Origin: a virus
Strand: one strand, 5' to 3'
IMG/VR virus record: IMGVR_UViG_3300045988_180880
Location: 64,001-128,000 of that record
Length of the DNA stretch: 64,000 nucleotides
Below, in pieces: positions 4,977-59,100 of the stretch. Made by a program: the position numbers and the translations under genes. Under the pieces are notes generated by a model. It saw only the letters and a list, made by a program, of their open reading frames with translations, searched no databases and had not been told where the DNA came from. The first letter of the stretch is position 1. Each line of letters starts with the position of its first letter.

Positions 4977-5582
4977 ATGAAGGTACTTAGAATTAAACAC
5001 TTCTCTTCTCTAGTATCTACACAACCAATTTTTAATAGATCTGAACATATGAAGCAACTACATGCTCAAGGAAGATATCAAGGTACTTCTAAAATTGGTA
5101 TATGGAATTCTAGTGAAGAGAAGAGACAAAGAATGGCATTACTTGGAGCTAAAAATGCTTTAGATAAAAATTCTAAAGGTTATGGATCTGAGTATGCAAT
5201 GAGAGTAAATAATAGAATATTACTTGGAAATAAATTTCAAGGAGAAACTGGTTATTTATATTTTGTAAGATATCCGAAATCAATAAAAATTGGATTTTCA
5301 AAGAATTGGGAACGTAGAATTAATACCCAATTGATGAATCAATTTCAAATACTTGGTGGAAAAGTTGTAGCAATTATATCAGGACCTACCAATGAACTAG
5401 CTGATCTCGAGTTTGATACTTTTATTAAATTTCAAAAATATACTAAACTGTCTAAAGACGAAACAAGGTATACTGAATTTTTAGATGATAAAATTAGAAA
5501 AGACGTATATAACTTTTTGGATGATAAAGTAAAAAATAATAGTAATTTGAAATTTATTATACAAAATAAAATAAACCTTTGA
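4977..5582 (+). CDS. Intron-encoded T5orf172/GIY-YIG-like protein
   Basis: GYLYFVRYPKSIKIGFS...R pattern. Lies inside the intron between Q and R. Confidence 0.5.
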   Translation: MKVLRIKHFSSLVSTQPIFNRSEHMKQLHAQGRYQGTSKIGIWNSSEEKRQRMALLGAKNALDKNSKGYGSEYAMRVNNRILLGNKFQGETGYLYFVRYPKSIKIGFSKNWERRINTQLMNQFQILGGKVVAIISGPTNELADLEFDTFIKFQKYTKLSKDETRYTEFLDDKIRKDVYNFLDDKVKNNSNLKFIIQNKINL

Positions 5583-6364
5583 AATTTATGACACAAGAAG
5601 AAATTAAATACCATAATCAACTATGGTATTATAAAACATATAATCAACTTATAGATAAATGTATACAATTGGAGTCTGATGGTTATCCAGAAGATATGTA
5701 TACAGAGGTTCACCATATATTACCTAAATGTATGGGTGGAACAAATAAGGAAGATAATTTAGTAAGAATGCCTGTTAGATATCATATAATGGCTCATTTA
5801 TTACTTGTAAAAATATATCCAAATATAGGAAAAATAATATATGCAGCTAATATAATGATTGTCGGAAATAAAAATACAAGAGCTGAACGAAATCTAGCTT
5901 TAAATCAATTCTCTACAAAAACTATTAGTCAATTAAGGGAAACTATGGCAAATTATCAGAAAGGAAAACCTTTATCAGAAGAACATAAGCAGAAAATTTC
6001 TTTTGCATTAAAAGGAAAAGTACATTCTGAGGATCATAATAGAAAAGTTTCTGAATCTAAAAAAGGAAAACATTTATCAAAAGAAACGAAAGATAAGTTA
6101 AAGTTGTCCCATTTAGGTAAAAGTCTTTCTGAAAGTCATAAAAAAGCTATTGGAAACGCTCTTCGTGGAAGAAAAGGAAAACCTCTCTCTGAGGAAGTAA
6201 GAGAGAAAATTTCTAAAAATAATAAAATGTCAAAAGCTGTTCAGGATTATAATGGTGTAATTTATAATAGTATCTCTGATTGTTCTAGAAAATTAAATAT
6301 TCCAGATAGTACTATTAGTTATTGGATCAAAAAACATCCTGAAAAAGGTTTTAAATTCGTATAA
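5579..6364 (+). CDS. Intron-encoded HNH homing endonuclease
   Basis: EVHHILPKCMGGT..N..H HNH motif. Repeated SEEHKxKIS (NUMOD3-like) modules. Likely true start is the ATG at 5588. Close paralog of 13745-14629. Confidence 0.8.
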   Translation: MKFMTQEEIKYHNQLWYYKTYNQLIDKCIQLESDGYPEDMYTEVHHILPKCMGGTNKEDNLVRMPVRYHIMAHLLLVKIYPNIGKIIYAANIMIVGNKNTRAERNLALNQFSTKTISQLRETMANYQKGKPLSEEHKQKISFALKGKVHSEDHNRKVSESKKGKHLSKETKDKLKLSHLGKSLSESHKKAIGNALRGRKGKPLSEEVREKISKNNKMSKAVQDYNGVIYNSISDCSRKLNIPDSTISYWIKKHPEKGFKFV

Positions 6365-11002: not shown

Positions 11003-11195
11003 GAATATAAAATTGCCGTCTAAGGAAGTAATTCTCTAGATAATTAGTAAGTAAATTTGGTGAAGCTAGTAACTAGTAATACCAAGCCTTGGATTAATAA
11101 TTAGAATCTTAAGGTATAACGAATAAAGACTTACCAACTTTTTTATAAGTTGAATTTATATTCTAAACTATAATAAGAAAATTATAGATAAATTG
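11003..11195 (+). mobile_element. Group I intron, type B, ORF-less
   Basis: GCCG guide, P2 hairpin, AGTAAGTAAATTTGGTGAAG / AATACCAAG / TATAACGAATAAAGACTTACC / AATTTATATTCT, terminal hairpin, tail ATAAATTG. Confidence 0.7.
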
Positions 11196-13336: not shown

Positions 13337-13557
13337 ACAAAATATAAAGGTGCCGTTTTATGGAGAAATCTATAAAATTATTAGTAAGTAAATTCGGTGA
13401 AGGGTAAAACCTAATACCGAACTAAGGATAATGAAAATTTTTAGTGTAACGAATAAAGACTTACTAACTTATAATTAAAATATAAGTTAAATTTATATTC
13501 TGTTCTATATAAGTAGAACTTTATTTATATAGTTAACAATAAAGCCCCCCTGGAGTA
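13337..13557 (+). mobile_element. Group I intron, type B (3' boundary unresolved)
   Basis: GCCG, P2 hairpin, AGTAAGTAAATTCGGTGAAG / AATACCGAAC / GTGTAACGAATAAAGACTTACT / AAATTTATATTCT, terminal hairpin ending at 13531. Confidence 0.6.
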
Positions 13558-13641: not shown

Positions 13642-14763
13642 TAAGTCTGATTATAGAATATTTTTTATAATAAAAACTTTGAGAATTGCTAGAAAACTAG
13701 TGATAGTTAATTAGCAGTATAAAATAAGTATAATTATTTATGCGTTGAGAGGAAAAATTTTTGAAAGGAATTTAAGAATGACGCATGTAAAAGAAATTAA
13801 ATACCACAATCAATTATGGTATTATAAAACGTACAATCAGTTAATAGATAAGTGTATACAGATGGAGTCTGAAGGTTATCCTGAAGATATGTATACAGAG
13901 GTTCACCACATACTACCTAAATGTATGGGTGGGACAAATGATGAGTCTAACTTAGTAAGAATGCCAGTTAGGTATCATATAATGGCACATTTATTGTTAG
14001 CACAAGTATATCCAGAAATAAATGGATTAGTTTATGCAGCACATGTTCTAGTCTCAGTGAATAATTCAGTTGTATCTACGAATACAGCTGCATTAATTAG
14101 AGAAGATTTTAAAAAGTCTAGAATAGGATCTCATCATTCAGAAGAGACAAGGAGAAAAATTTCTGAATCTAACAAAGGAAAAGTTATCCCTAGAGAACTA
14201 GTAGAGAAGTTAAGATCTATTAATTTAGGGAAGAAACATTCACTTGAAACGAGAAAGAAGATGTCAGAAGCTAGAAAAAGAGAGAATTTATCCGAGGAAA
14301 CACTAAGAAAAAGATCTCTAGCGTCCTCTGGAAGAAAACATTCTGAAGAAGTCAAGAAGAAGATTTCTATAGCTAATACTGGAAAAATTTTTAGCGAAGA
14401 ACACAGACAAAACATATCTAAAAGTAAGATGGGAAAAGGACATCCACATACTGAAAAAACAAAGAAAATGATGTCTGATACTAGCGTTAAGAGAAAAAGA
14501 GTTCAAGGCCCTGATGGAATAATTTACGAATCTATGAAACTTTGTTGTGAGAAATTTAATATTCATAGAGATACCCTTCGAAGCTGGATTAAAAATCACC
14601 CAGAAAAAGGCTTTAAATTTATTGATTAAAAAATTTATCATTACTATAAATTCCTTTCAATGTAATGAAATTTAATACTTATTTTATATTCAACGACTAT
14701 GTACAAAGAGGGAAATTCCTTAAGATATAGTCTAGTGATAAAGTAAAAAACTTTATCTATTCG
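13642..14763 (+). mobile_element. Group I intron, type A, with HNH ORF
   Basis: GAATTGCTAGAAA / TTAGCAG / ATTCAACGACTAT (14690) / AGATATAGTCTA, P9 hairpin, tail TATTCG. Confidence 0.8.
13745..14629 (+). CDS. Intron-encoded HNH homing endonuclease
   Basis: EVHHILPKCMGGTN and repeated SEETRxKIS modules. C-terminal WIKNHPEKGFKF. Likely start is the ATG at 13778. Confidence 0.8.
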   Translation: MRGKIFERNLRMTHVKEIKYHNQLWYYKTYNQLIDKCIQMESEGYPEDMYTEVHHILPKCMGGTNDESNLVRMPVRYHIMAHLLLAQVYPEINGLVYAAHVLVSVNNSVVSTNTAALIREDFKKSRIGSHHSEETRRKISESNKGKVIPRELVEKLRSINLGKKHSLETRKKMSEARKRENLSEETLRKRSLASSGRKHSEEVKKKISIANTGKIFSEEHRQNISKSKMGKGHPHTEKTKKMMSDTSVKRKRVQGPDGIIYESMKLCCEKFNIHRDTLRSWIKNHPEKGFKFID

Positions 14764-15132: not shown

Positions 15133-15326
15133 ACTAATTTATGTGCCGCTTAAAGTAGTAATATTTTAAGTAACCAGTAAGTAAATTCGGTGAAAGAGTG
15201 ACTGAGCTTTAATACCGAGCTAAAGATAATAGATTTCTTTAGTGTAACGAATAAAGACTTACTAACCAAAATAAAGGTTAAATTTATATTCTAAACTATA
15301 ATTAAAAGTATATTATAGAAGATTTG
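15133..15326 (+). mobile_element. Group I intron, type B, ORF-less
   Basis: Follows ATGGGT. Same conserved core as 11003-11195. The junction restores MG-TSMLKQSIPL (bacterial MGSNMQRQAVPL). Confidence 0.8.
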
Positions 15327-16266: not shown

Positions 16267-17666
16267 TTAATATAAGTCTAGTTAATTTTCAATAAAAGTT
16301 AACTAAATTTTGTGAATTGCTGGAAAAATCTAAATAAAATAGATGGATAGATAAATCAGCAGTATATTTATGTTTAATTATGAGTAAAATATGAGCGATA
16401 TTAATTTTTAATAATAAATTGAACAATGAGCGAAGAAGAAATATTAATACATAATCAAAATTGGTATCGCAAAGTATATTTCCAAATAATTGATCGCGCT
16501 AGATTAAGAGGTTTGGATAAAAATAAAATTGATTTTTATGTAGAAATTCATCATATACTACCTAAATGCCTAGGAGGAACTGATGAAAATGATAACTTAG
16601 TTGCATTAACTTATAGAGAACATATAGTTTGTCATAAATTATTGTGTAAATTATACCCAGATAATTACTACTTACATTCTTCTATATATTTAATGCTACA
16701 TATTAAAATAGAAAATGGGAAGAAGGTAAAAACATTTTCTAATTCTAAAGAGGCAGAAGAATATAAGCTTTTCTTGAAAACTCATAAAAAGCCTCTTTCT
16801 GAGGAATCTAGAAAAAAGATGTCAGAATCGCATAAAGGTTGGAGTCCATCTGAGGAACATAGAAGAAGAGTTTCAGAAGTACATACTGGAAAAATCGTTT
16901 CAAAAGAAACCAGAGAAAAATTAAGAAAGGTTAATCTGGGAAGACATCATACAGAAGAATCCAAAAGAAAGATATCAGAGTCACGTAGAGGAAAGAAATT
17001 ATCTTCAGAACAAAAAGAAAAAATTTCAAAATCACTAAAAGGAAAAAGATTAGGAATCTCTCCAACTAAGGAACAAGTAGAAAAAGCAAAACAAACTCGG
17101 ATACTCCATGGAGGGTGGGTACATACAGATGAAAGTAAAAGAAAAATTTCAGAATCTTTAAAGAAGACGAATTCTGTCTCTGAACATATATCAGAAGATA
17201 TAAGAAATTCTTTAAGGAAAAAGTTTGGGTTCGCTGTAAGATATACTGATATTAATACTGGTGAAATTTACGAATTTGATTCAATTACAAAAGCTGTTAG
17301 TGAACTTAAAGAGTTAAGTATTATGAATAAAAGCTTTCATTTTATAAAGCGTTCTTGTACATTAAATATTAATGGATTTGAATTTATCAATGAAACAAAT
17401 GAAATGATTCAAAAGAAAGTTCAGGGGCCTGATGGAATTATTTACAATAGTATATCTGAATGTGCTAGACAATTGAATACAGTTAGATCTGTAATTATTG
17501 ATTGGATTACTAATCATCCAGAAAAAGGATTTAAATACATTTAAAAAATCAATCGCTCATTGATATAAAAATAATTAAATAAAATATATTCAACGACTAT
17601 GTACAAAGAAGGAGTATTTCCTTAAGATATAGTCTAGACTTTACTTAATTAAGTAAAGTATTATCG
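16267..17666 (+). mobile_element. Group I intron, type A, with HNH ORF
   Basis: GAATTGCTGGAAAA / AAATCAGCAG / ATTCAACGACTAT (17589) / AGATATAGTCTA, P9 hairpin, tail ATTATCG. Confidence 0.8.
16426..17544 (+). CDS. Intron-encoded HNH homing endonuclease
   Basis: EIHHILPKCLGGTDENDN..H and repeated SEExRxKxS modules. C-terminal WITNHPEKGFKY. Confidence 0.8.
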   Translation: MSEEEILIHNQNWYRKVYFQIIDRARLRGLDKNKIDFYVEIHHILPKCLGGTDENDNLVALTYREHIVCHKLLCKLYPDNYYLHSSIYLMLHIKIENGKKVKTFSNSKEAEEYKLFLKTHKKPLSEESRKKMSESHKGWSPSEEHRRRVSEVHTGKIVSKETREKLRKVNLGRHHTEESKRKISESRRGKKLSSEQKEKISKSLKGKRLGISPTKEQVEKAKQTRILHGGWVHTDESKRKISESLKKTNSVSEHISEDIRNSLRKKFGFAVRYTDINTGEIYEFDSITKAVSELKELSIMNKSFHFIKRSCTLNINGFEFINETNEMIQKKVQGPDGIIYNSISECARQLNTVRSVIIDWITNHPEKGFKYI

Positions 17667-17680: not shown

Positions 17681-17871
17681 CAAATTACAAGGCCGTTTAA
17701 GGTAGTAATATCTTAAATAATCAGTAAGTAAATTTGGTGAAGGAAGTAAAATTCTAATACCAAGCTAATAAAATATAATAATTTATTAGTATAACGAATA
17801 AAGACTTACTAGGTTGAAATAATACCTAAATTTATATTCTAATTTACTAGGATAATCTAGTAATAGTAATG
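17681..17871 (+). mobile_element. Group I intron, type B, ORF-less
   Basis: Follows AAAGGT. Has GGCCG, a P2 hairpin and the conserved type B core. Tail TAGTAATG. Confidence 0.75.
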
Positions 17872-21616: not shown

Positions 21617-21652
21617 AAAAGAGAGGATTAATTTCCTCTCTTAATTTTTTAT
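21617..21652. terminator. Bidirectional terminator between convergent genes
   Basis: AAGAGAGGA..TCCTCTCTT flanked by an A-run and a T-run. Confidence 0.65.
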
Positions 21653-22776
21653 TTGTTTTCTATTAATTCTTTTGTTGCCTTTCTATGATAACCTTTCTTC
21701 TCAAATGCTTCAATAAAAATTCTTTTATGTATTGGATTTCCGGCCGCATCTTTTCCGTAGTATTGATTTCTCCAATGACCTCTTACACCAAAGGGACAAT
21801 CTATATTTATTTCAGTATCGTATAGTTTATCTACTATAATTACTCCTTGATTTCTTCGGCCAGTATTAGGATCTTCAAATTGTGTAGGTGGATTTTTTAC
21901 TTTTCCAGATAACACAGATTCAAATGTTTCAGTTTTTATTTCAGAAGTCATCAAAAATATAAAACTTTTAAATGATTCATAGATAAATCTGTATTTTATG
22001 CTAAATGATTCCTTAGCTTCAACCGAATATAAAGTTTGATTATAATTATTTTTAAAATATTTAATAAGATCATCTATAGTTTTATTATTTGATAATAAAT
22101 CTTCTTGACTATCTATTACCTCTTTATAGTAATCTTCTAATGTATCTGACCATCCTAATGAAGTAAACTCATTCATCATTTTTGAAGGAATACTTTTAAA
22201 AAATTTATCCAAACAATTAAACTGTTTACAAAGTTTGTATGAGTTAACAAATTCATCCATGCTATATAAACAACCTTCTAAGTTTAATTCAGAAAAATTT
22301 AATAAATCACTCTTTTTTATTACTACACTTCCTAATGAATTAAATGTTTTTTTATCATTGCCCATAATACACTTTCCAATAAATGCATATAGTATAATAT
22401 ATTCATTTGTTATACAAAAAATAGAGTGGGCATTATAGTCTGTTTCCTGTTTATCTTTCGTACTAGAATTATATATCAATCCAAATTTAGCTTTCTTTTC
22501 TGAATTTCTAAATAAGTCTTCTAAGTTCTTTTTACTGACTATATCTCTTAATTTGCTAGAAAATAGCCGTTCTTTATTAAGTGAATAAAATCGAATATAG
22601 TTTTGTATATTACTTGAAATTTTATATTTTCTTATAGGTCTGGGTTCTTTACTTACAACTTCAAAAAATACATTTTCAAATTCAGTAATATGTTTACGGT
22701 TCCTTCTAAAATTTTCTAAGCCTTCTTTTTGTAAAACATATTTTACTGCAAATAATTTCTCGTAATCTTTTTCCAT
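21649..22776 (-). CDS. Hypothetical protein
   Basis: 375-aa ORF with no motif recognised. Preceded by CCTTATTAATGTAA 25 nt upstream. Confidence 0.6.
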   Translation of the reverse strand: MEKDYEKLFAVKYVLQKEGLENFRRNRKHITEFENVFFEVVSKEPRPIRKYKISSNIQNYIRFYSLNKERLFSSKLRDIVSKKNLEDLFRNSEKKAKFGLIYNSSTKDKQETDYNAHSIFCITNEYIILYAFIGKCIMGNDKKTFNSLGSVVIKKSDLLNFSELNLEGCLYSMDEFVNSYKLCKQFNCLDKFFKSIPSKMMNEFTSLGWSDTLEDYYKEVIDSQEDLLSNNKTIDDLIKYFKNNYNQTLYSVEAKESFSIKYRFIYESFKSFIFLMTSEIKTETFESVLSGKVKNPPTQFEDPNTGRRNQGVIIVDKLYDTEINIDCPFGVRGHWRNQYYGKDAAGNPIHKRIFIEAFEKKGYHRKATKELIENK

Positions 22777-22860: not shown

Positions 22861-22867
22861 TAAATAG

Positions 22868-22941
22868 TGGGCCCAGCCAGGCTTGAACTGACGACCTTCT
22901 GATTATGAGTCAGCTTCTCTAACCAACTGAGATATGGGCCC
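22868..22941 (-). tRNA. tRNA with CAU anticodon (Met, or Ile if lysidine-modified)
   Basis: Reverse complement GGGCCCATATCTCAGTTGGTTAGAGAAGCTGACTCATAATCAGAAGGTCGTCAGTTCAAGCCTGGCTGGGCCCA folds as a cloverleaf. The TPsiC arm is GGTCGTCAGTTCAAGCC. Confidence 0.9.
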
Positions 22942-22959
22942 TGTTATAATTATGTCTAG

Positions 22960-23050
22960 TATCGGGAGGGGAGCTCGAATCCCCACGGGTCTTATTTTTC
23001 TGCCCAAAACATTTTAAGTGTTTCTTGTCTACCTATTCCAACATCCCGAC
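22960..23050 (-). tRNA. tRNA-Leu (UAA) with long variable arm
   Basis: Reverse complement GTCGGGATGTTGGAATAGGTAGACA..CTTAAAA..GGGGATTCGAGCTCCCCTCCCGATA. Anticodon loop CTTAAAA. Extended variable arm. Confidence 0.85.
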
Positions 23051-23177: not shown

Positions 23178-24566
23178 TCAGGGTTTCTGAGATTCCTCTT
23201 TTTCCTCAAGTTTAAAATTTCCTGCAGTACCATGTCCTAACGATAGTACTAACTTTACTGCCTCAGGACCTCTCATGTAGTAATATCCGTCTGGCGCAGG
23301 TTTTTCAGAATTTAAATTTTTACTAATACTTTTAGTAGAAATAACTGATTCCTTCTTTGCAGATGTAATTGAATTATATGCTCCAAGAACTCTTAATTTA
23401 TCTTTAGAAAATTTATATATTATATTCTCCATCTTTTTATGTAATTTCTCTTTGTCTCCAAGTTTAATACAAATATATTTTGTAGAAATTACATTACTAC
23501 TTAATAACCTATCTACTCTGGATCTTTTAATATTGTCTTTTCCAACTAGTTTCTGGATATCTCTCGAAAAACCAAAATTTAAAAAGTCTCCATATAGATC
23601 TGCTAATACTATTTTTTCTGATAATTTTTCCAGAGTATTTACATTATTCATATTTCCTTTTTGATCAGTAACTCTAAGATTAGAAAAACTATTATCTGTT
23701 TTTATTGTATTAATGTGATCAATTATTTCTCCCTTTTTTAAATTTCTTCTTAAGAGATATTCCATAATAACTGTATGCGCTTTAGTACTATTACTATCAA
23801 CTATAATATATCCTTTATTATTAAGTGTTCCTATTAATTTATTAAATCTATTTGATTTAATAAATCCTTCACTACACACAGACCATTGAGGATATTTCCA
23901 GTGTTCATACCAAGTATAGTCATCTAAGTTTCCAGAAAATCCTATAAGATCAAAAAACTTTTGATTATTTAATGATTCTTGTCGTTTCCAATAATATCCT
24001 TTATAGCTATATTGACTTTTTTTAGCAATCGAAGAAATGTAACGTATATCATATCCTTTACTATCTAAAGAATCTATTGTAAATAATTCATTTCCCTTTT
24101 TATCCATTGCAGTATATTTAATTCGTTTATCTTTATGAACTGGTAAGCGTCTATCTGGACTATTATTTTCACTTTTAGTAACCCATTCTAAGTTAGATAG
24201 GTTATTATTTCTTGGATTATGATCTATATGATTAACTATATTATATATTTTTGGTTCTGAATTATTATAGAAAATGGTAGCCATTATTATATGAATAGAT
24301 TTTGCTTTTCTTTTATGCTTTTCTATATATTGTGGAGAGATTGTAGTATATCCAAATTCATCTTGTTGTTGTTTTAATAGTTGTTTAGTGTATTTATTTC
24401 TAACTTCAGATTTTTTATTAATCTCATATATATCCTTAATACCTGGATATACTAATGGAATAAATTCATAGTCAGGGAGATCTGGATATTTTTGATCTTG
24501 GCGATTAAATGGTTTTTCTTTACACATAACAAAAATAGTTTCTAAATTAAACATCTTTTTCATCAC
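23178..24566 (-). CDS. Free-standing HNH endonuclease with two HNH_3-type domains
   Basis: NHIDHNPRNNNLSNLEWVT and IIDHINTIKTDNSFSNLRVT. Confidence 0.7.
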   Translation of the reverse strand: MMKKMFNLETIFVMCKEKPFNRQDQKYPDLPDYEFIPLVYPGIKDIYEINKKSEVRNKYTKQLLKQQQDEFGYTTISPQYIEKHKRKAKSIHIIMATIFYNNSEPKIYNIVNHIDHNPRNNNLSNLEWVTKSENNSPDRRLPVHKDKRIKYTAMDKKGNELFTIDSLDSKGYDIRYISSIAKKSQYSYKGYYWKRQESLNNQKFFDLIGFSGNLDDYTWYEHWKYPQWSVCSEGFIKSNRFNKLIGTLNNKGYIIVDSNSTKAHTVIMEYLLRRNLKKGEIIDHINTIKTDNSFSNLRVTDQKGNMNNVNTLEKLSEKIVLADLYGDFLNFGFSRDIQKLVGKDNIKRSRVDRLLSSNVISTKYICIKLGDKEKLHKKMENIIYKFSKDKLRVLGAYNSITSAKKESVISTKSISKNLNSEKPAPDGYYYMRGPEAVKLVLSLGHGTAGNFKLEEKEESQKP

Positions 24567-24637
24567 ACATATAAGAGAAAAAACTTAAATTTTACGTGTT
24601 TTGTAAGTTTCAAGTTTTAATAATATAAAATTCAAGT

Positions 24638-24678
24638 ATATAAAAATAAGAGAGGTAGAAAATGTATCTAACCTCTCT
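24638..24678 (-). terminator. Rho-independent terminator
   Basis: On the - strand: AGAGAGGT..ACCTCTCT followed by TATTTTTAT. Confidence 0.6.
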
Positions 24679-24686
24679 ATGTTATT

Positions 24687-24866
24687 TTACATAAAAATAT
24701 CTTGACCATTGATCTGTATTCTTATGTTTCCGAAGGGATTGCCTCCGATTATGCCGCTAGTTCCAGGGATTTCTTCAGGGATCACCTCTTCTATGACATT
24801 TTCATCATTAGTAATGATAGTTGGTAATTTTTCTTCGTCGACTGATTCTATTATTTCCTCTTCCAT
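24687..24866 (-). CDS. Small acidic protein (59 aa), missing from the ORF track
   Basis: ATG at 24866 and TAA at 24687-24689: MEEEIIESVDEEKLPTIITNDENVIEEVIPEEIPGTSGIIGGNPFGNIRIQINGQDIFM. Same strand as its neighbours, with a terminator directly after. Confidence 0.5.
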   Translation of the reverse strand: MEEEIIESVDEEKLPTIITNDENVIEEVIPEEIPGTSGIIGGNPFGNIRIQINGQDIFM

Positions 24867-24879
24867 AATTTATTCTCTA

Positions 24880-25383
24880 TTAAAACAATCCAAGTAAGTT
24901 AGTAATATCTCCTATATCTGTATTACTAATTTTTGTTCCTTCTACTTCTACTACTTCACCTTCTTGATTTACATATCTAGTGCCAGGGAAGACTATTTCT
25001 TTTTTCTGAATAGCTGCCTTGTACTCATAATTTTCAGTAGATTCTTTAAGTTTTTTTACCCAGTATTTAGCATAATCACCTTCTACTGCATCAGGATCAT
25101 ATGGTTCTTCAAATAATCCTTCTTTTGGTTGAGGGCATTCCATTTTTACTTTAATAACTGAGTCTTCATTTTCAGTATCAGTCATTTCATATTCCCAATA
25201 AAAGTAGTTTTTCTTTTTATTACTTTTATATGTACCTTCTGTCTTAAGGTCATCCCATATATTTTTAATAAGCTCCACAATATTAGTAGTACTTGCTTGT
25301 CCTGGAGTTAATAAAATCTGTTCTTGAACTAAAGCATTTTCAATAATAAATGCTTGTCCTTTAATTATTTTTGATTTACTCAT
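24880..25383 (-). CDS. Hypothetical protein
   Basis: 167-aa ORF with no motif recognised. Confidence 0.55.
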   Translation of the reverse strand: MSKSKIIKGQAFIIENALVQEQILLTPGQASTTNIVELIKNIWDDLKTEGTYKSNKKKNYFYWEYEMTDTENEDSVIKVKMECPQPKEGLFEEPYDPDAVEGDYAKYWVKKLKESTENYEYKAAIQKKEIVFPGTRYVNQEGEVVEVEGTKISNTDIGDITNLLGLF

Positions 25384-25401
25384 TGTTTATCAATTTTTTA
25401 T

Positions 25402-25497
25402 TTATTTATTTTCAGGTTCAAATTCCCAAGCTCTTCCATGACCTTGAGATAATATTAATTCAACTGCTTTATCTCCCCTATAACTTTTATGAAACAA
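25402..25497 (-). pseudogene. Remnant of an HNH endonuclease C-terminus
   Basis: The - strand reads ..HKSYRGDKAVELILSQGHGRAWEFEPENK-stop. It resembles the C-terminus of 23178-24566 (YMRGPEAVKLVLSLGHGTAGNFKLEEKE). No ATG. Confidence 0.45.
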
Positions 25498-25575
25498 TAA
25501 AAGAACACTAGATCGATCTATAAATATTTCTTTTATAAATTTTTCTAATGTTCTTTCATATATTAGGTTTTAACC
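25497..25575 (-). repeat. Promoter-like motif plus conserved hairpin element, copy 1
   Basis: The - strand reads CTAATATATGAAAGAACATTAG..loop..CTAGTGTTCTTTTATT. Copies at 36507 and 63131. Confidence 0.55.
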
Positions 25576-25595
25576 TTTCTCTAAGTGCATTTTTA

Positions 25596-26633
25596 TCATT
25601 TCATATTATCACTAGCTACTTTTTCAGCTAATCTTAAGTATGATATGCAATTATAGTATTCCGAGTCTTCCTCTGGATATACTATTTCAGATACACTAAA
25701 TATTTTATCTACTTCTTTTTCTACTTCAGGATCATGGAGATATTTTTTCATAAAATAACTTAATCCTCCTAAAACAATAATACCATCATCTAAAGCATCA
25801 AGTACCTCTCCATAATTTTTATCTAAATATTGAAAAACTTCGATAATATATTTTTTTGAAAACTCTTCAACTTGTCTAGATAAATCTATTGTTTTTCCTC
25901 TGCGTTTTAAAACTCCAGTATCTAAAATTACTTGGCCTTCTTTAATTGAAATTGATATCGAATAATTTTTATATAGATAATCAACGAGATCGTAAACTAT
26001 TCTAATTACGCCAGAATCTTTTACTCCTACAGCAGCACCTGCTGAAGAAGTACCGTTGATAATACTACAGAAATCTAAAGTTTCAAATCCTCCATCAAGT
26101 ATTAATGCATTTCTTAACTTAACATCATTACGTCTAGAAGCTTCACGAACATTTAACCCATATTCATTATAGGTATATTTACATGATAAGCCTTGGCAAA
26201 AACAATATATATAATCTTCTTTATTTATATTTAATGTTTCATATAAATAATCTAATAATTCATCTACGTTATCATTGGTATTAAAAGCCATTGATAAACC
26301 AATAGCTAATTTATCAAATGCATTTATTCCTTCATCTCCGCCATATTTTTTTATTAAATATGACAACCATGGGGCATAAACTGCTTTTAAATCTTCAAAA
26401 GTTTCGAGTTTAAGTAAATAAGATCTAGGTACTTTTAATGCTGCAGGTCCTAATACATAATAATCCCCTCCTAATGGAAATACCATATCATCATCACTTT
26501 CAAGTGGTTTTTCAGGGAGTTTTGCTGTTGCACTAATAAACTTTTCAAATTTTATTAAACCGTTGGAATCCTTAAAAGAACACTTAATAGCAGAGAAACC
26601 AACATCAACACTTAAAATTCTCAAATTGCTCAT
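25596..26633 (-). CDS. Actin-like ATPase (ParM/ASKHA family)
   Basis: LSVDVGFSAIK (phosphate 1), LILDGGFETLDF (phosphate 2, DxGxxT), IIVLGGLSYFM (adenosine). Confidence 0.65.
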   Translation of the reverse strand: MSNLRILSVDVGFSAIKCSFKDSNGLIKFEKFISATAKLPEKPLESDDDMVFPLGGDYYVLGPAALKVPRSYLLKLETFEDLKAVYAPWLSYLIKKYGGDEGINAFDKLAIGLSMAFNTNDNVDELLDYLYETLNINKEDYIYCFCQGLSCKYTYNEYGLNVREASRRNDVKLRNALILDGGFETLDFCSIINGTSSAGAAVGVKDSGVIRIVYDLVDYLYKNYSISISIKEGQVILDTGVLKRRGKTIDLSRQVEEFSKKYIIEVFQYLDKNYGEVLDALDDGIIVLGGLSYFMKKYLHDPEVEKEVDKIFSVSEIVYPEEDSEYYNCISYLRLAEKVASDNMK

Positions 26634-27037
26634 CTTTTATAATTTTCTAAAATTTGTTCGTAAGCCTTTATTATATTCTTATCAACTTTATACTTTTTAA
26701 GATCTCCTAGAACAGTATTAGTTAGGTAATCAAATGGTACATGTGGGAGAAGTGCAGTATATCCAGATGTAACCATACCAACTGAAAAGTGTTCTGTTGG
26801 TTGATTAAGTGCTACTATAACAATCTGAGTTAATCCTGACTCTCCCGTAGTATCTTTATAAGCAAATACTAAATCTCCAGCGAGTAATGAACTATGAATA
26901 CTAGCCCATAAATCATTTGCTACAGACATTGCATTATCCCATCCCCATACTCTTCTTTTCTCTAGAAATTCATAATCTTTTTCCGACATTTTTTCACTCT
27001 CCATCGGATTCGAGTTTTTCTTTGTCTTTTCCATCAC
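26630..27037 (-). CDS. Hypothetical protein
   Basis: ORF whose stop overlaps the ParM-like start. Confidence 0.5.
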   Translation of the reverse strand: MMEKTKKNSNPMESEKMSEKDYEFLEKRRVWGWDNAMSVANDLWASIHSSLLAGDLVFAYKDTTGESGLTQIVIVALNQPTEHFSVGMVTSGYTALLPHVPFDYLTNTVLGDLKKYKVDKNIIKAYEQILENYKR

Positions 27038-27437
27038 TTAAAATATAAATTAGTATATAATAATAATCTGCTTCTTCACAATCAACTTCTTGAATTCCAA
27101 CTACATCAATATTAGAATAATCTCCCCAGATCTTTACTACTTTTGACAATGACCCTAGAATATGTGCTAAATATTCAGGAGTATCTTGATATTTTCTGGC
27201 TTCGAATAGAATATTATAATAAATCCATTCACCAGCTTCTCGATTTCTTTTCTTTGTTTCTAAAAATCTCAATCCTATTCCTGGAGTTTTATCTATATAA
27301 TCATATTCTAAGATTCGTTGGGTTAATTGATTTTGAATTTCTAATCTAGTATTTCCTTTTAATCCAAGAAGTCGTTTTATATCGTTATTGTATTCCGGAA
27401 CTGCCATAACCTGATCCTCCTCGTTCTGTTTCATCAA
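26994..27437 (-). CDS. Hypothetical protein
   Basis: ORF whose 5' end overlaps the dUTPase 3' end, so its start may be internal. Confidence 0.5.
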   Translation of the reverse strand: MMKQNEEDQVMAVPEYNNDIKRLLGLKGNTRLEIQNQLTQRILEYDYIDKTPGIGLRFLETKKRNREAGEWIYYNILFEARKYQDTPEYLAHILGSLSKVVKIWGDYSNIDVVGIQEVDCEEADYYYILIYILSDGKDKEKLESDGE

Positions 27438-27816
27438 GTTTACTAACTTCCTCTAATTCCATATGAGTTACTTCTGCACAAACCATCTGAGCAATTCTTT
27501 CTCCATGTTCTACAGTTACCTCTACAGGACTAAGATTAACTAAAATTACTCCAATTTCTCCTCTATAGTTTGAATCTATAGTGGCTGGTCCATTTAAAAC
27601 TCCTAATCCTTTTTTTAAGGCTTCTCCAGATCTAGCTCTAACTTGGATTTCAGTTCTAGGGGGAAGTTGAACATATATGCCTGTAGGAACTAATTTTCTT
27701 TCTAACGGTTTTAATGTAAATTCTTCACCGATATTTCTAAGGTCCATTCCAGAATCTCCAGGCTTTGCATAACTTGGAAGTGGAAATTTTGATTTATTAA
27801 TAATTTTTACAACCAT
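27385..27816 (-). CDS. dut: dUTP diphosphatase (trimeric dUTPase)
   Basis: PGDSGMDLR, RSGEALKKG, IDSNYRGEIGVILVN, ERIAQMV, RGGSGYGSSG. Confidence 0.9.
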   Translation of the reverse strand: MVVKIINKSKFPLPSYAKPGDSGMDLRNIGEEFTLKPLERKLVPTGIYVQLPPRTEIQVRARSGEALKKGLGVLNGPATIDSNYRGEIGVILVNLSPVEVTVEHGERIAQMVCAEVTHMELEEVSKLDETERGGSGYGSSGIQ

Positions 27817-28337
27817 GATACTGTATTACTATAAAATGTTTTATTACCTATACCTAAAAAATGTTTTTGTTCACGAGAATCAGTATATACATTTACATCC
27901 CCAATAAAGTCTTTAATAATTGTATAACACCAATCTCCATGTTCTACTAAAAAATCTGGCTTATATTTTAAAACTTCGTCAAGATAAAATACTCCAAAAG
28001 TCCCAGAATCTACACAATATCTTCCAATAGTTTCCCTCTGATTAACTAATTTTTCAAGATTAATCTGATTTTCAATTGAAGGATTATCGTAAAGATTATA
28101 GTAAGCTTCTTCAATATCATCTATGAATTTTTCAAGCTCAAGTAAGCCAAGAATATTTTTTAGTTTTGATACTTTCCATCTTCCATCTCCAACTCCAGTA
28201 TCTTCCCAAATATAATTATCAGAGAATCCTACTTCTTCCGAGATAGTCATATTATTATAATTAAATCCGTTTCCCCAATCCTTATTTTCTGCAATATAGC
28301 AGGGATCTGTGATAATAATCGTTCCGTTAAAATTCAT
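27807..28337 (-). CDS. Hypothetical protein
   Basis: ORF in an operon-like overlap chain. Confidence 0.5.
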   Translation of the reverse strand: MNFNGTIIITDPCYIAENKDWGNGFNYNNMTISEEVGFSDNYIWEDTGVGDGRWKVSKLKNILGLLELEKFIDDIEEAYYNLYDNPSIENQINLEKLVNQRETIGRYCVDSGTFGVFYLDEVLKYKPDFLVEHGDWCYTIIKDFIGDVNVYTDSREQKHFLGIGNKTFYSNTVSWL

Positions 28338-32821: not shown

Positions 32822-34441
32822 TTAACCTTCTACTTTAGTTTCGGAAATATTATCATCAATGATTGTACAATCAATTAAGAGAATCATTGACGCTGCTGAA
32901 ATAGAATTTTCAAGAGCTACTCGAAGAGATTTAGAACTATCTAAGATCCCCTCCTCAAGTAAATTACCATACTTTCGAGTCTTAGCATTATATCCAATTC
33001 CTGGTTTAGATGATTTAACCTTTTCTAGAACTACTTCTCCAGAAACTCCTGAATTGTCTGCAATTGTTTTAAGAATTACTGGAAGACTTGAGAATACAAT
33101 TTCTGCACCCTCTACTTCATCTCCAACTAAAGATTTCCAGAATGTCTTATCTTTCTTCACTTCTAATGATCCTTTGTAATAGATATAACCACTTCCTAAA
33201 GAACATCCTTCAGCAATAGCACTTTTAGATGCTAGAATAGAATCTTCAATAGTTTGTTTAAGGTTCTGTTTTTCAGTTTCAGAAGCTCCTCCAGCTCTCA
33301 CTACTGCAATACCTCCACTAAGATTTGCTACTCGTTTCGCAAATTTAGTTTTATCATAATCTGATATTCCAGGATCTGTAAGTTTGGTGCTAAGAATTTC
33401 TACCCTTTCAGCAATCTCTTTAGAATCACCACCACCTTCATAGATAATACATGAATCTCTAGAAATTACAACTTTCTTAGCTACTCCAAGATCCTCTTTT
33501 GTTGCTTGTGTGACTGATAATCCGTTCTCAGGAGAAATATATTTACCGCCAGTTAAAATTGAAATATCTGCCATAATATTTTTCCTTGAATCTCCGAAAT
33601 CAATACCTTTTACAACACAACATCTAATTGCACCTTGAAGAGTATTCATAACAAGAGTTGTATTTACTACTTCATCAATATCATCTACTATAAATAAGAA
33701 TGGGCGTCCAGTAGGTACAAGCTGTTCCATTAACGGAAGAATTTGCTGTACACTAGATAATCTTTCTCCTACTACAATTACATAAGGATCTTCCATTACA
33801 CAAGTTCCATCAGTAGGATTTGTAACATACTGTGGAGAAGCCCAACCACGATCGAGTTTCATTCCAGTAGTTACATCAATAGTAGTTTCAAGACCACTAG
33901 AAAAATCAGCTGTAATAATACCAAGCATTCCAACTTTCTCCATACATTCAACTACCAGATTTCCAATGGCCGGATCATTATTGGCTGAAATAGTTGCCAC
34001 TTTTCTGATCTTTTCCATATCATCATTTACTGGAATTGAATTATTTTTGATATACTCAGCCATCCATTTTCCGGCCTTAAGCATACCAGATTTCACCTCA
34101 TTTACATTAGCTCCAGTTCGTAATGCTTTTTGTCCTTTTTCACACATTTCTTTGATTAATAGTGAAGTTGAACTTGTACCGTCACCTGCTAATCTTTCTG
34201 TTTGAGCGGCAGCATTTTTTACAAAGATAGCTCCTGTATTCTGAAGTTGATTCTTAAATGAAATCGACTTAGCAACAGTAGCTCCATCTCTTGACACCTC
34301 TGGACCTGTAAATCCTGAAATACATACGGCTTTACCTGACGGGCCGAGTGTTTTCTTAATTGCCTCTACTGATTTTTTTACACCTTCAATAATTTCGGCC
34401 TGAGTTTCAAAGCCGTGATTAATAATTTTTCCTTCTGACAT
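32822..34441 (-). CDS. groEL: Chaperonin GroEL (Cpn60) homologue
   Basis: TLGPSGK, DGATVAKSI, AGDGTSST, VVRAGGASE. About 539 aa. Confidence 0.9.
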   Translation of the reverse strand: MSEGKIINHGFETQAEIIEGVKKSVEAIKKTLGPSGKAVCISGFTGPEVSRDGATVAKSISFKNQLQNTGAIFVKNAAAQTERLAGDGTSSTSLLIKEMCEKGQKALRTGANVNEVKSGMLKAGKWMAEYIKNNSIPVNDDMEKIRKVATISANNDPAIGNLVVECMEKVGMLGIITADFSSGLETTIDVTTGMKLDRGWASPQYVTNPTDGTCVMEDPYVIVVGERLSSVQQILPLMEQLVPTGRPFLFIVDDIDEVVNTTLVMNTLQGAIRCCVVKGIDFGDSRKNIMADISILTGGKYISPENGLSVTQATKEDLGVAKKVVISRDSCIIYEGGGDSKEIAERVEILSTKLTDPGISDYDKTKFAKRVANLSGGIAVVRAGGASETEKQNLKQTIEDSILASKSAIAEGCSLGSGYIYYKGSLEVKKDKTFWKSLVGDEVEGAEIVFSSLPVILKTIADNSGVSGEVVLEKVKSSKPGIGYNAKTRKYGNLLEEGILDSSKSLRVALENSISAASMILLIDCTIIDDNISETKVEG

Positions 34442-34902: not shown

Positions 34903-36384
34903 TTATTTTTGCTCTTGTTGTTTGTAATATTCTTCAAGTTTATCAGGATATTTTTCTTTAAAGTCTGAAAATTTAAACCAATATGAATTATTATATAAGG
35001 ATTCAGTATTTAATTTTTTATCTTTATTTAAGATTCTCCATACATTCTGGTGAAATAACCCATCTTCTCTAACATTTCCAATACTTTTATATATTTTTAT
35101 AATCTCATGATTCCGATTAGTTCTTATTATTTCATTTCTAAATAACTTAACAACTAACTTTGGTAAATTATTTGTTTCTTTATTAAGATAGTATTCATCT
35201 AATTTATCTGGATATTCCCATTCATCTAGGCTAGTCCAATAATAATCAAAGTATTTACCTATAGCAGAATAAGATGTCCTTGTTTTATTACGATTTACTG
35301 CAGCAGATACTGAAGATTCAGAAAATCCATCTTTTATAACATCTTTTACTGAATCATAGATTTTATATATTAAATAGTCTTTATCATGACAAATAATCTT
35401 TTTACTTCTCTTAGTTTCTCTAGGAATATATTTTATTATATTAGAAATTGCTCCTTTTTCATAAAATTTTTGAATACTATTCGAATATAAATTAATAGCA
35501 TCGTTGTAATACATCCAGTAATATTCTCCATATAATGTTTTATTCTCTATACTCCTTCTAAGATACTCTGGATTAAATCCATCTATTTTAATAGAGGATA
35601 TTGTATTATATATTTTACAAACATTGAAGTTTTTATCAAAACATACTATCTTTGTTCCGGAATCATTATATTCTAATACAGTATTTCTTTCTAAAGGTGT
35701 TAAATTTAATTTTGGTAGATCTTTTAATGAATAAAATTCATTTAATTTTTCTGGATAATTAATTTTAAAATCTTCTAATAAAGAAAATTTATATCCTCTA
35801 GAAGTATTGTAATCTCCTTTTACAGTACTACTAACAGAAGTGTGATTAAAACCATCCATTTCAGTTTCTGAAATACTACTATATACTCTATAAACTTTAT
35901 TATTTAAATCATGACAAACAACAGGATATGAGATAGAACGTATATATTTTTCTCTTAACTCAGCAGAAAGGGTAATATTATATTTCTCTATTACTAATTT
36001 TCGCTCGGATGTATATACTGAATTTACATTAATCATACAAAATAGAGCAGATAATATTTTATTATTATCTGATTGAATTCTATATAATAAAACGTGTGCT
36101 ATTATATGTTCTAAAGCAGAAAGAAGTACGTAATTATAGTTCTCATCTTCACCTGACATACACCTAGGTAAAATATGATGTTTCTCTGTATAAAATTCGA
36201 TTTTTCCTCGTTTTAATCCTCTCTGAAGGGCTTGATCTATTAATTTACAGTAATCTTCTAGATATTCCTCTTCAGTTCTCCCATCTAGAATCATCTCATT
36301 AAAATCTTTTTCATCTAGGTAACTACTATACTTCATCCCTGGATTTTCGATAGATTTTATACCTTCTATTGGTTTAGATTTCAT
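34903..36384 (-). CDS. Free-standing HNH homing endonuclease with four C-terminal repeats
   Basis: TEKHHILPRCMSGEDENYN..H. Four ~60-aa repeats (I.CHD.....YKIY.S....DGF). Confidence 0.75.
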   Translation of the reverse strand: MKSKPIEGIKSIENPGMKYSSYLDEKDFNEMILDGRTEEEYLEDYCKLIDQALQRGLKRGKIEFYTEKHHILPRCMSGEDENYNYVLLSALEHIIAHVLLYRIQSDNNKILSALFCMINVNSVYTSERKLVIEKYNITLSAELREKYIRSISYPVVCHDLNNKVYRVYSSISETEMDGFNHTSVSSTVKGDYNTSRGYKFSLLEDFKINYPEKLNEFYSLKDLPKLNLTPLERNTVLEYNDSGTKIVCFDKNFNVCKIYNTISSIKIDGFNPEYLRRSIENKTLYGEYYWMYYNDAINLYSNSIQKFYEKGAISNIIKYIPRETKRSKKIICHDKDYLIYKIYDSVKDVIKDGFSESSVSAAVNRNKTRTSYSAIGKYFDYYWTSLDEWEYPDKLDEYYLNKETNNLPKLVVKLFRNEIIRTNRNHEIIKIYKSIGNVREDGLFHQNVWRILNKDKKLNTESLYNNSYWFKFSDFKEKYPDKLEEYYKQQEQK

Positions 36385-36506
36385 AATTAAAAAATATTTA
36401 AAATAATTATAAACCTCATAAGAATTTTACTAAAGGGAAATTTCAGGTCAATAAAGTTTGCAACCTTTACTAATCTTACTTTTTCCCTATTCTTATGAAA
36501 TCTAAA

Positions 36507-36580
36507 TAAAAAGAACACTAGATTAATTTATAATTTTATTTATAAATTTTTCTAATGTTCTTCATATATTAGGTTTTAAT
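36507..36580 (-). repeat. Promoter-like motif plus conserved hairpin element, copy 2
   Basis: Near-identical to 25497-25575: AACCTAATATATGAAGAACATTAGAAAAATTTATAAA..CTAGTGTTCTTTTT. Confidence 0.55.
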
Positions 36581-55262: not shown

Positions 55263-56294
55263 ATGATATATTTGATTAAGAGTGCAGGTTATGATGAGAA
55301 TGAAAATTTAATTCATCTTCTCAAAATAGGTTATACAGAGGATAATAATAGAGATAGAAGATTTATGTCTTACAAACTTCATAATCCTACTTGTAAAATT
55401 TTATATGAAATTCCCAGTCTTTCAGAAGATATAGAAAAGAGAATTCAATATAAGTTTAGAGATTATAAGTATAAAGAATATGGAAATGAGTGGTTTTATT
55501 ATAATGATGATGTAATAAATTTCTTTAGGGATATAGATAAAGTAGATTTGGAATCTCTTCCAAAGTCTCCTATGAGTGAAAAGAGGGATTATAAGAGATT
55601 TAGAAAAATGGTTAAAGAATTTGTTCCTTGGATTATTGCTGATATAAAGGATAGAAATGAATATGTAAAGAAGATAATAGATGAATTAGGTAGTAATTTA
55701 AATTCTATTCAGGATATATTAGATTATGTGATAAAGGATTACGGAGAGGATTCTATCTCTAAGTATCTTGAAGTTACTAAGAAAAAAGAGATGAAAGTGT
55801 ATAGTGAAGATTCAAAGATTAATAGTGAAATAATAAAGTTTATTAATACTTATGAAACTCTTACTACTATCTATGATAAACTTAAAATGTTATGTGAATA
55901 TCCAGTCTCTAAGGAAGTTATTCAGATAGTATTAGATCAAATAGCAGATAGTGATGAGATTAAGTCTTATTATTTGCTTTTAGGTCCTGATAGGTTGAAA
56001 AAATTACATTATAATATTACAAATATTAGAAGAGAATTAGGTATTGTAACCTTTAGTCCTGAATTATTAAATAATACTATTCATCAAAATTTTAATCCAG
56101 GTGAGAAGTATACATTAGCTAATTTAAAGGCTAAACTTGGAGATCTATACTCTTCTATTTCTTATACTGCAGTTCCTAAGGCCAATGATATTTTAGAGTA
56201 TTTCGAAGTAAAAGAGGTTCAAAATACTATGTTAGTAGATGGAGTAAAGAAGCGAATTCGTAGTTATGAATTATTAAAAAGAAAGGATAATTAA
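55263..56294 (+). CDS. T5orf172-like domain fused to the C-terminal domain of the helicase-like paralogs
   Basis: N-terminal IYLIKSAG....LLKIGYTED..R. The last ~150 aa are near-identical to the C-terminus of 53233-55260. Confidence 0.6.
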   Translation: MIYLIKSAGYDENENLIHLLKIGYTEDNNRDRRFMSYKLHNPTCKILYEIPSLSEDIEKRIQYKFRDYKYKEYGNEWFYYNDDVINFFRDIDKVDLESLPKSPMSEKRDYKRFRKMVKEFVPWIIADIKDRNEYVKKIIDELGSNLNSIQDILDYVIKDYGEDSISKYLEVTKKKEMKVYSEDSKINSEIIKFINTYETLTTIYDKLKMLCEYPVSKEVIQIVLDQIADSDEIKSYYLLLGPDRLKKLHYNITNIRRELGIVTFSPELLNNTIHQNFNPGEKYTLANLKAKLGDLYSSISYTAVPKANDILEYFEVKEVQNTMLVDGVKKRIRSYELLKRKDN

Positions 56295-59080: not shown

Positions 59081-59100
59081 TCCCTCTCCATTTATTTTTT
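59063..59100. terminator. Bidirectional terminator between convergent genes
   Basis: AGAGAGGGA..TCCCTCTC flanked by an A-run and a T-run. Confidence 0.6.

Follow-up and report, generated by a model that had tools for sequence, protein, structure and literature searches.

The 64,000-nucleotide (nt) stretch of viral DNA analyzed here (the window; positions 64,001 to 128,000 of the IMG/VR record IMGVR_UViG_3300045988_180880) encodes an actin-like ATPase, the product of open reading frame (ORF) 25596-26633 and termed ALP below, which sequence profiles and a structural model confirm as a genuine member of the ParM/Alp-type actin-fold ATPase family; ATPase activity and filament formation are predicted. 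Actin-like genes of phages are already known, and ALP is a divergent further member. New here are its fixed pairing with two small orphan proteins of 135 and 167 amino acids (aa) and a replacement of the actin gene only, by an allele whose product is 54% identical. Our reading, to which we assign a probability of roughly 0.55, is that ALP filaments organize or position phage DNA or a replication/assembly site, with the two orphan proteins as regulator or adaptor. The locus is not a classical ParMRC cassette, being without an iteron centromere and without a ribbon-helix-helix (RHH) ParR. Related loci used for comparison carry labels with the letter L (e.g., L001).

A sequence-only reading of this DNA had described the ORF as a ParM/actin-like ATPase with the ASKHA motifs in ParM order, and this description held. 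The phosphate-1 motif (D10-x-G12-x-S14-x-x-K17), the phosphate-2 motif (D180-G181-G182-x-x-x-x-D187), and the adenosine motif (G289-G290) follow one another as in ParM and are invariant or at least 90% conserved in an alignment of 39 sequences, with homologues at 44 to 81% identity. PHROG 691, labeled "partition protein," matches ALP over its full length (E value 3.5e-18; residues 4 to 338 on profile positions 3 to 324 of 329), and most of 102 metagenomic homologues, including most of those at 45 to 55% identity, carry precomputed PF21522 and/or PF17989 assignments. A single-sequence phmmer search of ALP against PDB gave noise only; with the family profile, the top five matches in PDB were Alp12 and four ParM sequences (E values 0.002 to 0.04), the phosphate-2 and adenosine motifs being aligned to the DLGGTTLD and IGGGA segments of ParM.

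The AlphaFold2 model of ALP, built on an alignment, has a predicted local distance difference test (pLDDT) score of 89.1 and a predicted template modeling (TM) score of 0.86. When this model was compared with PDB by Foldseek, the best match was the ParM of Clostridium botulinum pCBH (E value 3.5e-17, TM-score 0.71, probability 1.00). Ranks 1 to 18 comprise ParM proteins (including those of B. thuringiensis and R1), Ta0583, MamK, CorM (TM-score 0.67), and Alp7A, with BeeR (TM-score 0.69) close behind, and the Hsp70 nucleotide-binding domains start at rank 19 (E value ~1e-12, TM-score ~0.6). No sugar kinase is present among the 50 matches listed, and the identity of ALP to the solved actin homologues among the PDB matches listed is 12 to 19%; the best viral structural match is Gp506 of the jumbo Bacillus phage G. 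A structure search had been named beforehand as the test that could overturn the actin assignment in favor of an Hsp70-type protein or a sugar kinase, and its best matches are filament-forming ParM-like actins instead. Because these outrank Hsp70 and no sugar kinase occurs among the matches listed, ALP was placed in the ParM/Alp branch.

The ALP gene is the last of an array of four genes, in the order dUTPase, 147-aa protein, 135-aa protein, and ALP, each of which overlaps the next; the stop codon of the 135-aa gene and the start codon of the ALP gene share the tetranucleotide ATGA (4-nt overlap). These overlaps imply that the array is cotranscribed, probably with translational coupling; the true start of the 135-aa protein may be an internal methionine. 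The gene order is kept in related loci as dUTPase, the 147-aa type where present, the 135-aa type, ALP, a hairpin, and the 167-aa type. The 147-aa gene is dispensable, the dUTPase gene directly preceding the 135-aa homologue in L032 to L034 and in L036. With the exception of L031, every related locus encodes a homologue of the 135-aa protein (down to 28% identity) directly upstream of ALP, and two of the most distant members (28 to 29% identical to the protein of the window) still overlap the start of an ALP of ~332 aa; the 167-aa homologue follows such distant ~332-aa ALPs where the contig extends far enough. An exhaustive profile search of 1.84e9 proteins yielded 117 representatives of the 135-aa family, and remote, domain-fused relatives were not among them, all significant matches being small standalone proteins. 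For the 135-aa and the 167-aa family alike, no sequence match was obtained in Pfam, NCBIfam, PADLOC, or PDB. Isoelectric points (pI) range from 4.7 to 7.8 in the 135-aa family, whose core is acidic, and from 4.2 to 5.0 in the 167-aa family, with 4.7 for the 167-aa protein of the window. The 135-aa and 167-aa proteins are thus strictly conserved partners of ALP, which they flank throughout the detectable family; this linkage, which is genomic in nature, is the strongest evidence for joint work, and the two proteins are reasonable candidates for adaptors or regulators.

The AlphaFold2 model of the 167-aa protein (pLDDT 83.2 overall, above 90 for most of residues 1 to 123, and ~50 in the tail) features a β-rich domain (residues 1 to 123) with a long helix, followed by a flexible C-terminal region. 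A Foldseek search of PDB with this model gave no fold match (best E value 0.31, TM-score of at most 0.23), and the protein may represent a new fold. The C-terminal end carries the motif N-x-D-L/I-G-D-I-T/S-N-L-L-x-L/M-F, which ranks with the most strongly conserved blocks in its family; it comes after an indel-prone segment and appears in the monomer model with low confidence and a short helix. Such a combination is characteristic of peptides that become structured when bound to a partner; the tail is a possible docking motif, to be taken as a lead. It recalls ParR, the C-terminal helix of which is bound to ParM in 4A62, a structure among the fold matches of ALP. The sequence-only reading had put forward the small neighbors on both sides of ALP as candidates for ParR-like adaptors; ORFs 26630-27037, 24880-25383, and 24687-24866 are all present on the minus strand, as is the ALP ORF itself, and the positions and supporting evidence of all features are collected in Table 1. 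The likeness to ParR was not sustained. ParR homology of the 167-aa protein is ruled out by its fold, which is neither RHH nor helix-turn-helix (HTH), and by its acidic charge, the 135-aa protein is an orphan, and the 59-aa ORF is ruled out as a conserved adaptor by its restriction to close relatives. What survives is that two of the three, the 135-aa and 167-aa proteins, are conserved partners.

Table 1. Features of the ALP locus and its surroundings (positions in the window)
Feature	Position	Strand	Evidence or remark
ALP, ParM/Alp-type actin-like ATPase, 345 aa	25596..26633	-	PHROG 691, ASKHA motifs, AlphaFold2 and Foldseek
135-aa orphan protein	26630..27037	-	Upstream partner of ALP; ~100-aa core GW...SIHSSLL.G.LVFAYK...
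167-aa acidic orphan protein, conserved downstream partner	24880..25383	-	Conservation and AlphaFold2 model
Segment (ALP ORF and downstream spacer) exchanged for a divergent allele in L037/L055	25400..26631	-	Sliding identity; L037/L055 5001-6091
Long hairpin with U-run, predicted intrinsic terminator after ALP	25502..25554	-	Core of ~85-nt repeat, ~25495-25580
Extra ~115 nt of spacer	25384..25501	-	Lacking in most relatives; no alignment to the L029 leader
Second hairpin copy	36512..36561	-	z-score -6.9; directly upstream of homing-endonuclease ORF 34903-36384
dUTPase, head of the overlapping four-gene array	27385..27816	-	Pfam dUTPase, E value 3.2e-26; PHROG 135, E value 1.5e-46
147-aa acidic orphan protein, accessory array member	26994..27437	-	In close relatives; absent from several
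59-aa acidic ORF, pI 4.05	24687..24866	-	tblastn matches only in L001, L013, and L037, plus a partial match of 17 aa in L029
Second terminator-like hairpin with U-run, closing the 167-aa/59-aa unit	24640..24678	-	-18.4 kcal/mol, z-score -4.8
HNH homing endonuclease	23178..24566	-	Two HNH_3 stretches; Pfam HNH_3, E value 2.3e-16; PHROG 959/59

In two related IMG/VR contigs, L037 (232 kb) and L055 (282 kb), the ALP gene has been exchanged, together with its downstream spacer, on an otherwise nearly identical backbone. The dUTPase, the 147-, 135-, and 167-aa proteins, and a 176-aa protein encoded just upstream of the dUTPase (27807-28337) are 98 to 100% identical to those of the window, whereas the ALP proteins are only 54% identical. 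At the nucleotide level, identity is 95 to 100% up to the ALP start codon, drops to ~50 to 70% in the ORF, is lost in an unalignable spacer, and returns to ~95% from ~25,400 onward; the left breakpoint lies within a few bases of the ALP ATG. Identity of the replacing allele is 92% to the allele of the more distant locus L029 and ~70% to the common type, and the allele of the window groups with a minority type. An assembly chimera is unlikely, since two independent contigs agree, with breakpoints at the ATG and in the spacer, and since a related allele (P0025) and a near-backbone 167-aa protein (P0107) both have a longest contig of 15,686 bp, which suggests that the two lie on one contig. In the "Jug" gut jumbo phages, the terL gene has been replaced by a 38 to 57% identical allele on a more than 90% identical backbone, with endonuclease genes adjacent (PMC12363816). 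The exchange of ALP, with 54% identity on a 95 to 100% identical backbone and an HNH gene in the spacer of L029, shows the same gene-sized pattern, although a different gene is concerned. ALP goes unmentioned in the preprint's main text and in two searched supplementary files, where ParM and actin occur in the reference list only. Two causes are conceivable: a homing endonuclease of the adjoining spacer may have driven co-conversion, or the exchange may reflect selection, e.g., through filament incompatibility or escape from defense.

The spacer between the ALP and 167-aa genes contains the repeat element (25497-25575) that the sequence-only reading had considered as a binding site for the neighboring proteins. 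The element exists and is indeed a repeat, as a second copy of the hairpin occurs in the window where 0 would be expected by chance; the role of a centromere gave way to that of a terminator hairpin. The hairpin after ALP has a folding energy of -25.2 kcal/mol (z-score -5.1 relative to shuffled sequences) and is followed by UUUUAUUGUUU. A hairpin with a T-run follows ALP in 11 of the 12 distinct related loci inspected, the remaining one, L031, having no spacer, and the arms are often unrelated in sequence, those of L007 and L032 to L037 all being different. Because structure and position are kept while the arm sequence is free to vary, the sequence evidence indicates an intrinsic (Rho-independent) terminator and not a protein-binding centromere; a consensus terminator scanner missed the hairpin, the stem of which is AT-rich and the loop long. 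Consistently, the candidate centromere consists of a single hairpin and U-run, relatives carry unrelated hairpins in its place, and the same element stands before endonuclease ORFs, on which grounds it was rejected. Upstream of ALP, the overlapping genes leave no spacer for a centromere, and TRF and short-seed repeat searches in and near the module revealed no iterons, only AT-rich low-complexity matches. An alignment of three copies of the ~85-nt repeat (25495-25580 and 36500-36575, minus strand, and 6040-6130 of L029), with arms AGAACATTAG and CTAGTGTTCT, links the element to mobile genes: in two of the three contexts a homing-endonuclease ORF comes directly after it, and in L029 the gene that follows it is an HNH gene inserted between the ALP and 167-aa genes. 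Judged by these contexts, the repeat resembles one end of a mobile endonuclease cassette, either its leader or its terminator. The spacer from ALP to the 167-aa gene measures 212 nt in the window versus 58 to 95 nt in most relatives, and the extra ~115 nt may be the remnant of such a cassette.

As for function, ALP would bind ATP and polymerize into filaments during the replication phase of infection, and these filaments would organize or position replicating phage DNA or the replication/assembly site, in the way proposed for AlpC or PhuZ. The two orphan proteins would act as regulator and/or cargo adaptor of ALP, and the tail of the 167-aa protein would dock on the ALP filament as the C terminus of ParR docks on ParM. 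The ALP gene belongs to a long minus-strand block of codirectional genes reaching from 21.6 to 47.7 kb, which contains solid matches to ThyX, dUTPase, and GroEL and sub-threshold Pfam matches to helicase-C, Toprim, and NAD-ligase-OB; on balance, these surroundings constitute a replication and nucleotide-metabolism region.

Several observations weigh against this reading. The Pfam matches of the window's ALP stay below the gathering thresholds (MreB-like_C, 20.9 versus 27.8 bits; ALP_N, 16.6 versus 26.3 bits), no NCBIfam model matched ALP, and scans with PADLOC and NCBIfam of ALP together with its neighbor proteins returned nothing. The strong Hsp70 match of the ALP model is expected for a shared fold, yet it has to be counted here as well. 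Both partner families are acidic, and a fold search with the 167-aa model and sequence searches with both families gave no DNA-binding fold or family, so that any link to DNA would be hypothetical. Hidden Markov models of the partner families gave no significant match among the neighbors of the ALP homologues in Rhizobium phage TM30, Campylobacter phage CP220, and two distant IMG/VR loci; the families are thus absent beside the Rhizobium and Campylobacter phage homologues checked. Finally, the partner proteins are 98% identical across the exchange of ALP for a 54% identical allele, which argues against tight allele-specific coadaptation with ALP. As the partners remain unchanged across the exchange, they either contact conserved surfaces of ALP or are not allele-specific partners.

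A more far-reaching version of the proposal, which we regard as rather doubtful, would make the 135-aa protein, ALP, and the 167-aa protein an undescribed three-component cytoskeletal module restricted to a large gut jumbo-phage clade. The accessory proteins would be unrelated to known actin regulators and to ParR, the 135-aa protein being translationally coupled to ALP and the 167-aa protein equipped with a docking tail. The exchange of the actin would then have been driven by selection, e.g., through filament incompatibility in coinfection or escape from a filament-sensing defense, and not by neutral co-conversion.

Filaments of ALP might serve purposes other than the handling of DNA, either as a scaffold or transport system for capsids or other assemblies or by interfering with the actin-like cytoskeleton of the host (MreB/FtsA) during takeover, so that division is blocked or the cell changes shape. 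In line with such a role, ALP has a Pfam match to the MreB-like C-terminal domain, and its good structural matches include three actins that do not partition plasmids, namely MamK, BeeR, and CorM; the acidic partners, moreover, look ill suited to DNA binding. It is nevertheless unlikely, as nothing suggests membrane binding or mimicry of a host protein, the low identity to solved actin homologues noted above extends to all of these matches, and the genomic context is one of DNA metabolism, not of morphogenesis.

Partition in the manner of a plasmid is likewise improbable. Here the phage would persist as a long-lived unintegrated episome, in a carrier state or as a phage-plasmid, and the filament would segregate genome copies like ParMRC or the ParM-like systems of Bacillus plasmid-prophages. 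The nearest structures to ALP are indeed actins that segregate plasmids, and PHROG 691 bears its "partition protein" label; moreover, the authors of the Jug preprint found virion genes to be little transcribed in gut samples and describe mother-infant persistence of one and the same phage, and its reference list holds a ParMRC review and a plasmid-prophage paper (PMC12363816). ParM-like genes are reported to be common in plasmid-prophages (PMC8026635, PMC6669507). Against segregation stand the lack of iteron or centromere arrays within the module and close to it, the failure to detect an RHH or HTH adaptor in the fold search of the 167-aa protein and in sequence searches of both partners, and the position of the ALP gene inside an overlapping replication and nucleotide-metabolism array of a T4-like phage. 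In addition, ALP homologues occur in phages of the Eucampyvirinae and Kleczkowskaviridae, which are regarded as strictly lytic myoviruses.

Least likely according to the structural ranking, and very improbable overall, is a nonpolymerizing ASKHA ATPase, i.e., a chaperone-like or kinase-like enzyme with an actin fold: the Hsp70 matches at E values of ~1e-12 and a GroEL gene 6 kb upstream, beside a weak Cpn10/GroES call, could be adduced for it, but filament-forming actins surpass Hsp70 in both E value and TM-score with no sugar kinase among the 50 matches listed, the profile matches in PDB are solely Alp12 and ParM, the Pfam signals are confined to ALP_N and MreB-like_C, and with 345 aa ALP has the size of ParM and no substrate-binding domain.

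With the plasmid actins (ParM of R1, pCBH, and pBMB67, Alp12 of C. tetani, and Alp7A), ALP shares fold, size, and motif order. Plasmid ParMRC, however, is a stand-alone three-part cassette with an upstream iteron centromere and an RHH ParR, whereas the ALP gene is part of a phage replication-gene array and its locus has neither of these elements. Closer in setting is the AlpC/AlpA/alpS system of the Corynebacterium prophage CGP3 (PMC4446434, PMC5539076), likewise a phage-borne actin, which is coexpressed with a small upstream partner gene. AlpC/AlpA filaments bind CGP3 DNA and are needed for its efficient replication, the adaptor gene being located upstream of the actin gene (PMC4446434), and the role proposed for AlpC is to position phage DNA and support its efficient replication, not to segregate it. 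The two systems differ in that DNA binding by the adaptor AlpA has been demonstrated and alpS sites precede the operon, whereas the 135-aa protein is an orphan without repeat sites or evidence of DNA binding, and in that CGP3 is a cryptic prophage, whereas ALP belongs to a T4-like jumbo phage. The phage tubulins PhuZ and TubZ resemble ALP in the proposed role only, i.e., a nucleoside triphosphate-driven filament that positions phage DNA or a compartment (PMC7950403); their tubulin/FtsZ fold is unrelated to the actin/ASKHA fold of ALP.

An actin-type filament gene had been presented by the sequence-only reading as a cytoskeletal solution different from the tubulin (PhuZ) spindles of jumbo phages; the solution is not unprecedented, in light of Gp506 of phage G, the characterized AlpC/AlpA system (PMC4446434), and the 36 GenBank phage records in which tblastn found annotated ALP homologues. 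The latter are designated "MreB-like ATPase," "ParM/StbA family," or "partition protein" and belong to Campylobacter, Rhizobium, Vibrio, Ralstonia, and Acinetobacter phages; Campylobacter phage CP220 also carries "Actin-like ATPase domain" superfamily annotations. CP220 gp066, CP21_047, RHph_TM30 gp264, and the proteins of Vibrio phage Va1 and Ralstonia phage RP13 are PHROG 691 members with 26 to 30% identity to ALP over 84 to 100% of the length. As at the ALP locus, the PHROG 691 genes of isolated large phages are flanked by small unannotated genes, but in the Rhizobium and Campylobacter phages checked, no neighbor could be assigned to the 135-aa or the 167-aa partner family. No lytic or jumbo phage with a functionally studied actin-like protein was found in the searchable literature; a study of actin-like proteins of B. 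pumilus phages is cited in PMC4870245.

IMG/VR contigs as long as 377,817 bp carry a gene identical to the window's ALP gene, which identifies the phage as a jumbo phage (~375 kb), as the sequence-only reading had assumed, and homologues occur on metagenomic contigs of 240 to 394 kb. A megablast search of GenBank phages with window positions 24000 to 28000 gave no match, so there is no isolated close relative at the DNA level. The GC content of the window is 25 to 36% per 2-kb bin, mainly 27 to 31%, genes for HNH and LAGLIDADG endonucleases are numerous, and split nrdD and split dUTPase genes are seen in related loci. The Jug phages have genomes of 360 to 402 kb with 27 to 30% GC, are T4-like, are rich in HNH homing endonucleases and in split genes, and have Bacteroides/Phocaeicola as predicted hosts (PMC12363816). 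Size, GC content, endonucleases, and split genes fit, and the phage of the window probably belongs to this T4-like gut clade. The dUTPase gene is divided into two ORFs (85 plus 62 or 86 plus 86 aa) with a gap of ~150 nt in L002 to L004 (e.g., L002 4594-5190) and in L062 (1640-2326). The dUTPase gene of the window is intact, and the split in relatives is compatible with interruptions by introns or endonucleases of the Jug type.

Further observations concern the surroundings of the ALP locus and the remainder of the window. The HNH gene at 23178-24566 is a variable neighbor, absent or different in L002, L037, and L005. Genes for tRNA-Met (CAT; 22867-22941) and tRNA-Leu (TAA; 22959-23050) lie on the minus strand between ORF 21649-22776 and this HNH gene. 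The GroEL chaperonin ORF (32822-34441, minus strand; PHROG 5725, E value 9e-120) is kept in relatives, as is the 84-aa gene with the weak Cpn10/GroES match, which was called beside GroEL in L001. GC skew and AT skew change sign with gene orientation at ~21 to 22, 48, and 59 to 60 kb. Two adjacent repeat families of ~58 to 66 nt (GCCGT.TAAGG... and GTATAACGAATAAAGACTTAC...) occur in four copies at 11015-11179, 13352-13509, 15145-15307, and 17692-17838 on the plus strand, spaced 1.8 to 2.5 kb apart between plus-strand ORFs; at the gathering threshold, Rfam detected no group I intron at these repeats. Additional short repeat families are found nearby (6367, 10672, 14676, and 17576; 7881, 9290, and 17624). 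Coding repeats of ~42 to 79 nt, which specify approximately K-G-K-x-L-S-E-E-H-K-x-K-I-S, are located at 5960-6214, 14135-14419, and 16804-17028 within ORFs 5579-6364, 13745-14629, and 16426-17544, respectively; we take these units to resemble the NUMOD-type repeats of homing endonucleases. ORFs 355-2397, 53233-55260, and 55263-56294 (680, 675, and 343 aa) are paralogous, with 63 to 81% nucleotide identity over several hundred bases, and those tested had no PHROG match. The 1213-aa ORF 59100-62741 (minus strand) contains several internal repeat families and matches PHROG 31410 (function unassigned) with an E value of 2e-72.

Most of what is known about phage cytoskeletons comes from nucleus-forming jumbo phages and their PhuZ tubulin, and the phage actins directly studied in the searchable literature are AlpC, from a cryptic prophage, and those of the cited B. 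pumilus phage study. The ALP family is found in what is apparently one of the most abundant clades of human-gut jumbo phages. Should ALP be only a ParM-like relic, the result would amount to a refinement of annotation and a caution about "partition protein" labels in lytic phages. Otherwise, two alleles, two candidate partners, and a tail motif provide an experimental handle on the role of actin filaments in lytic jumbo-phage infection.

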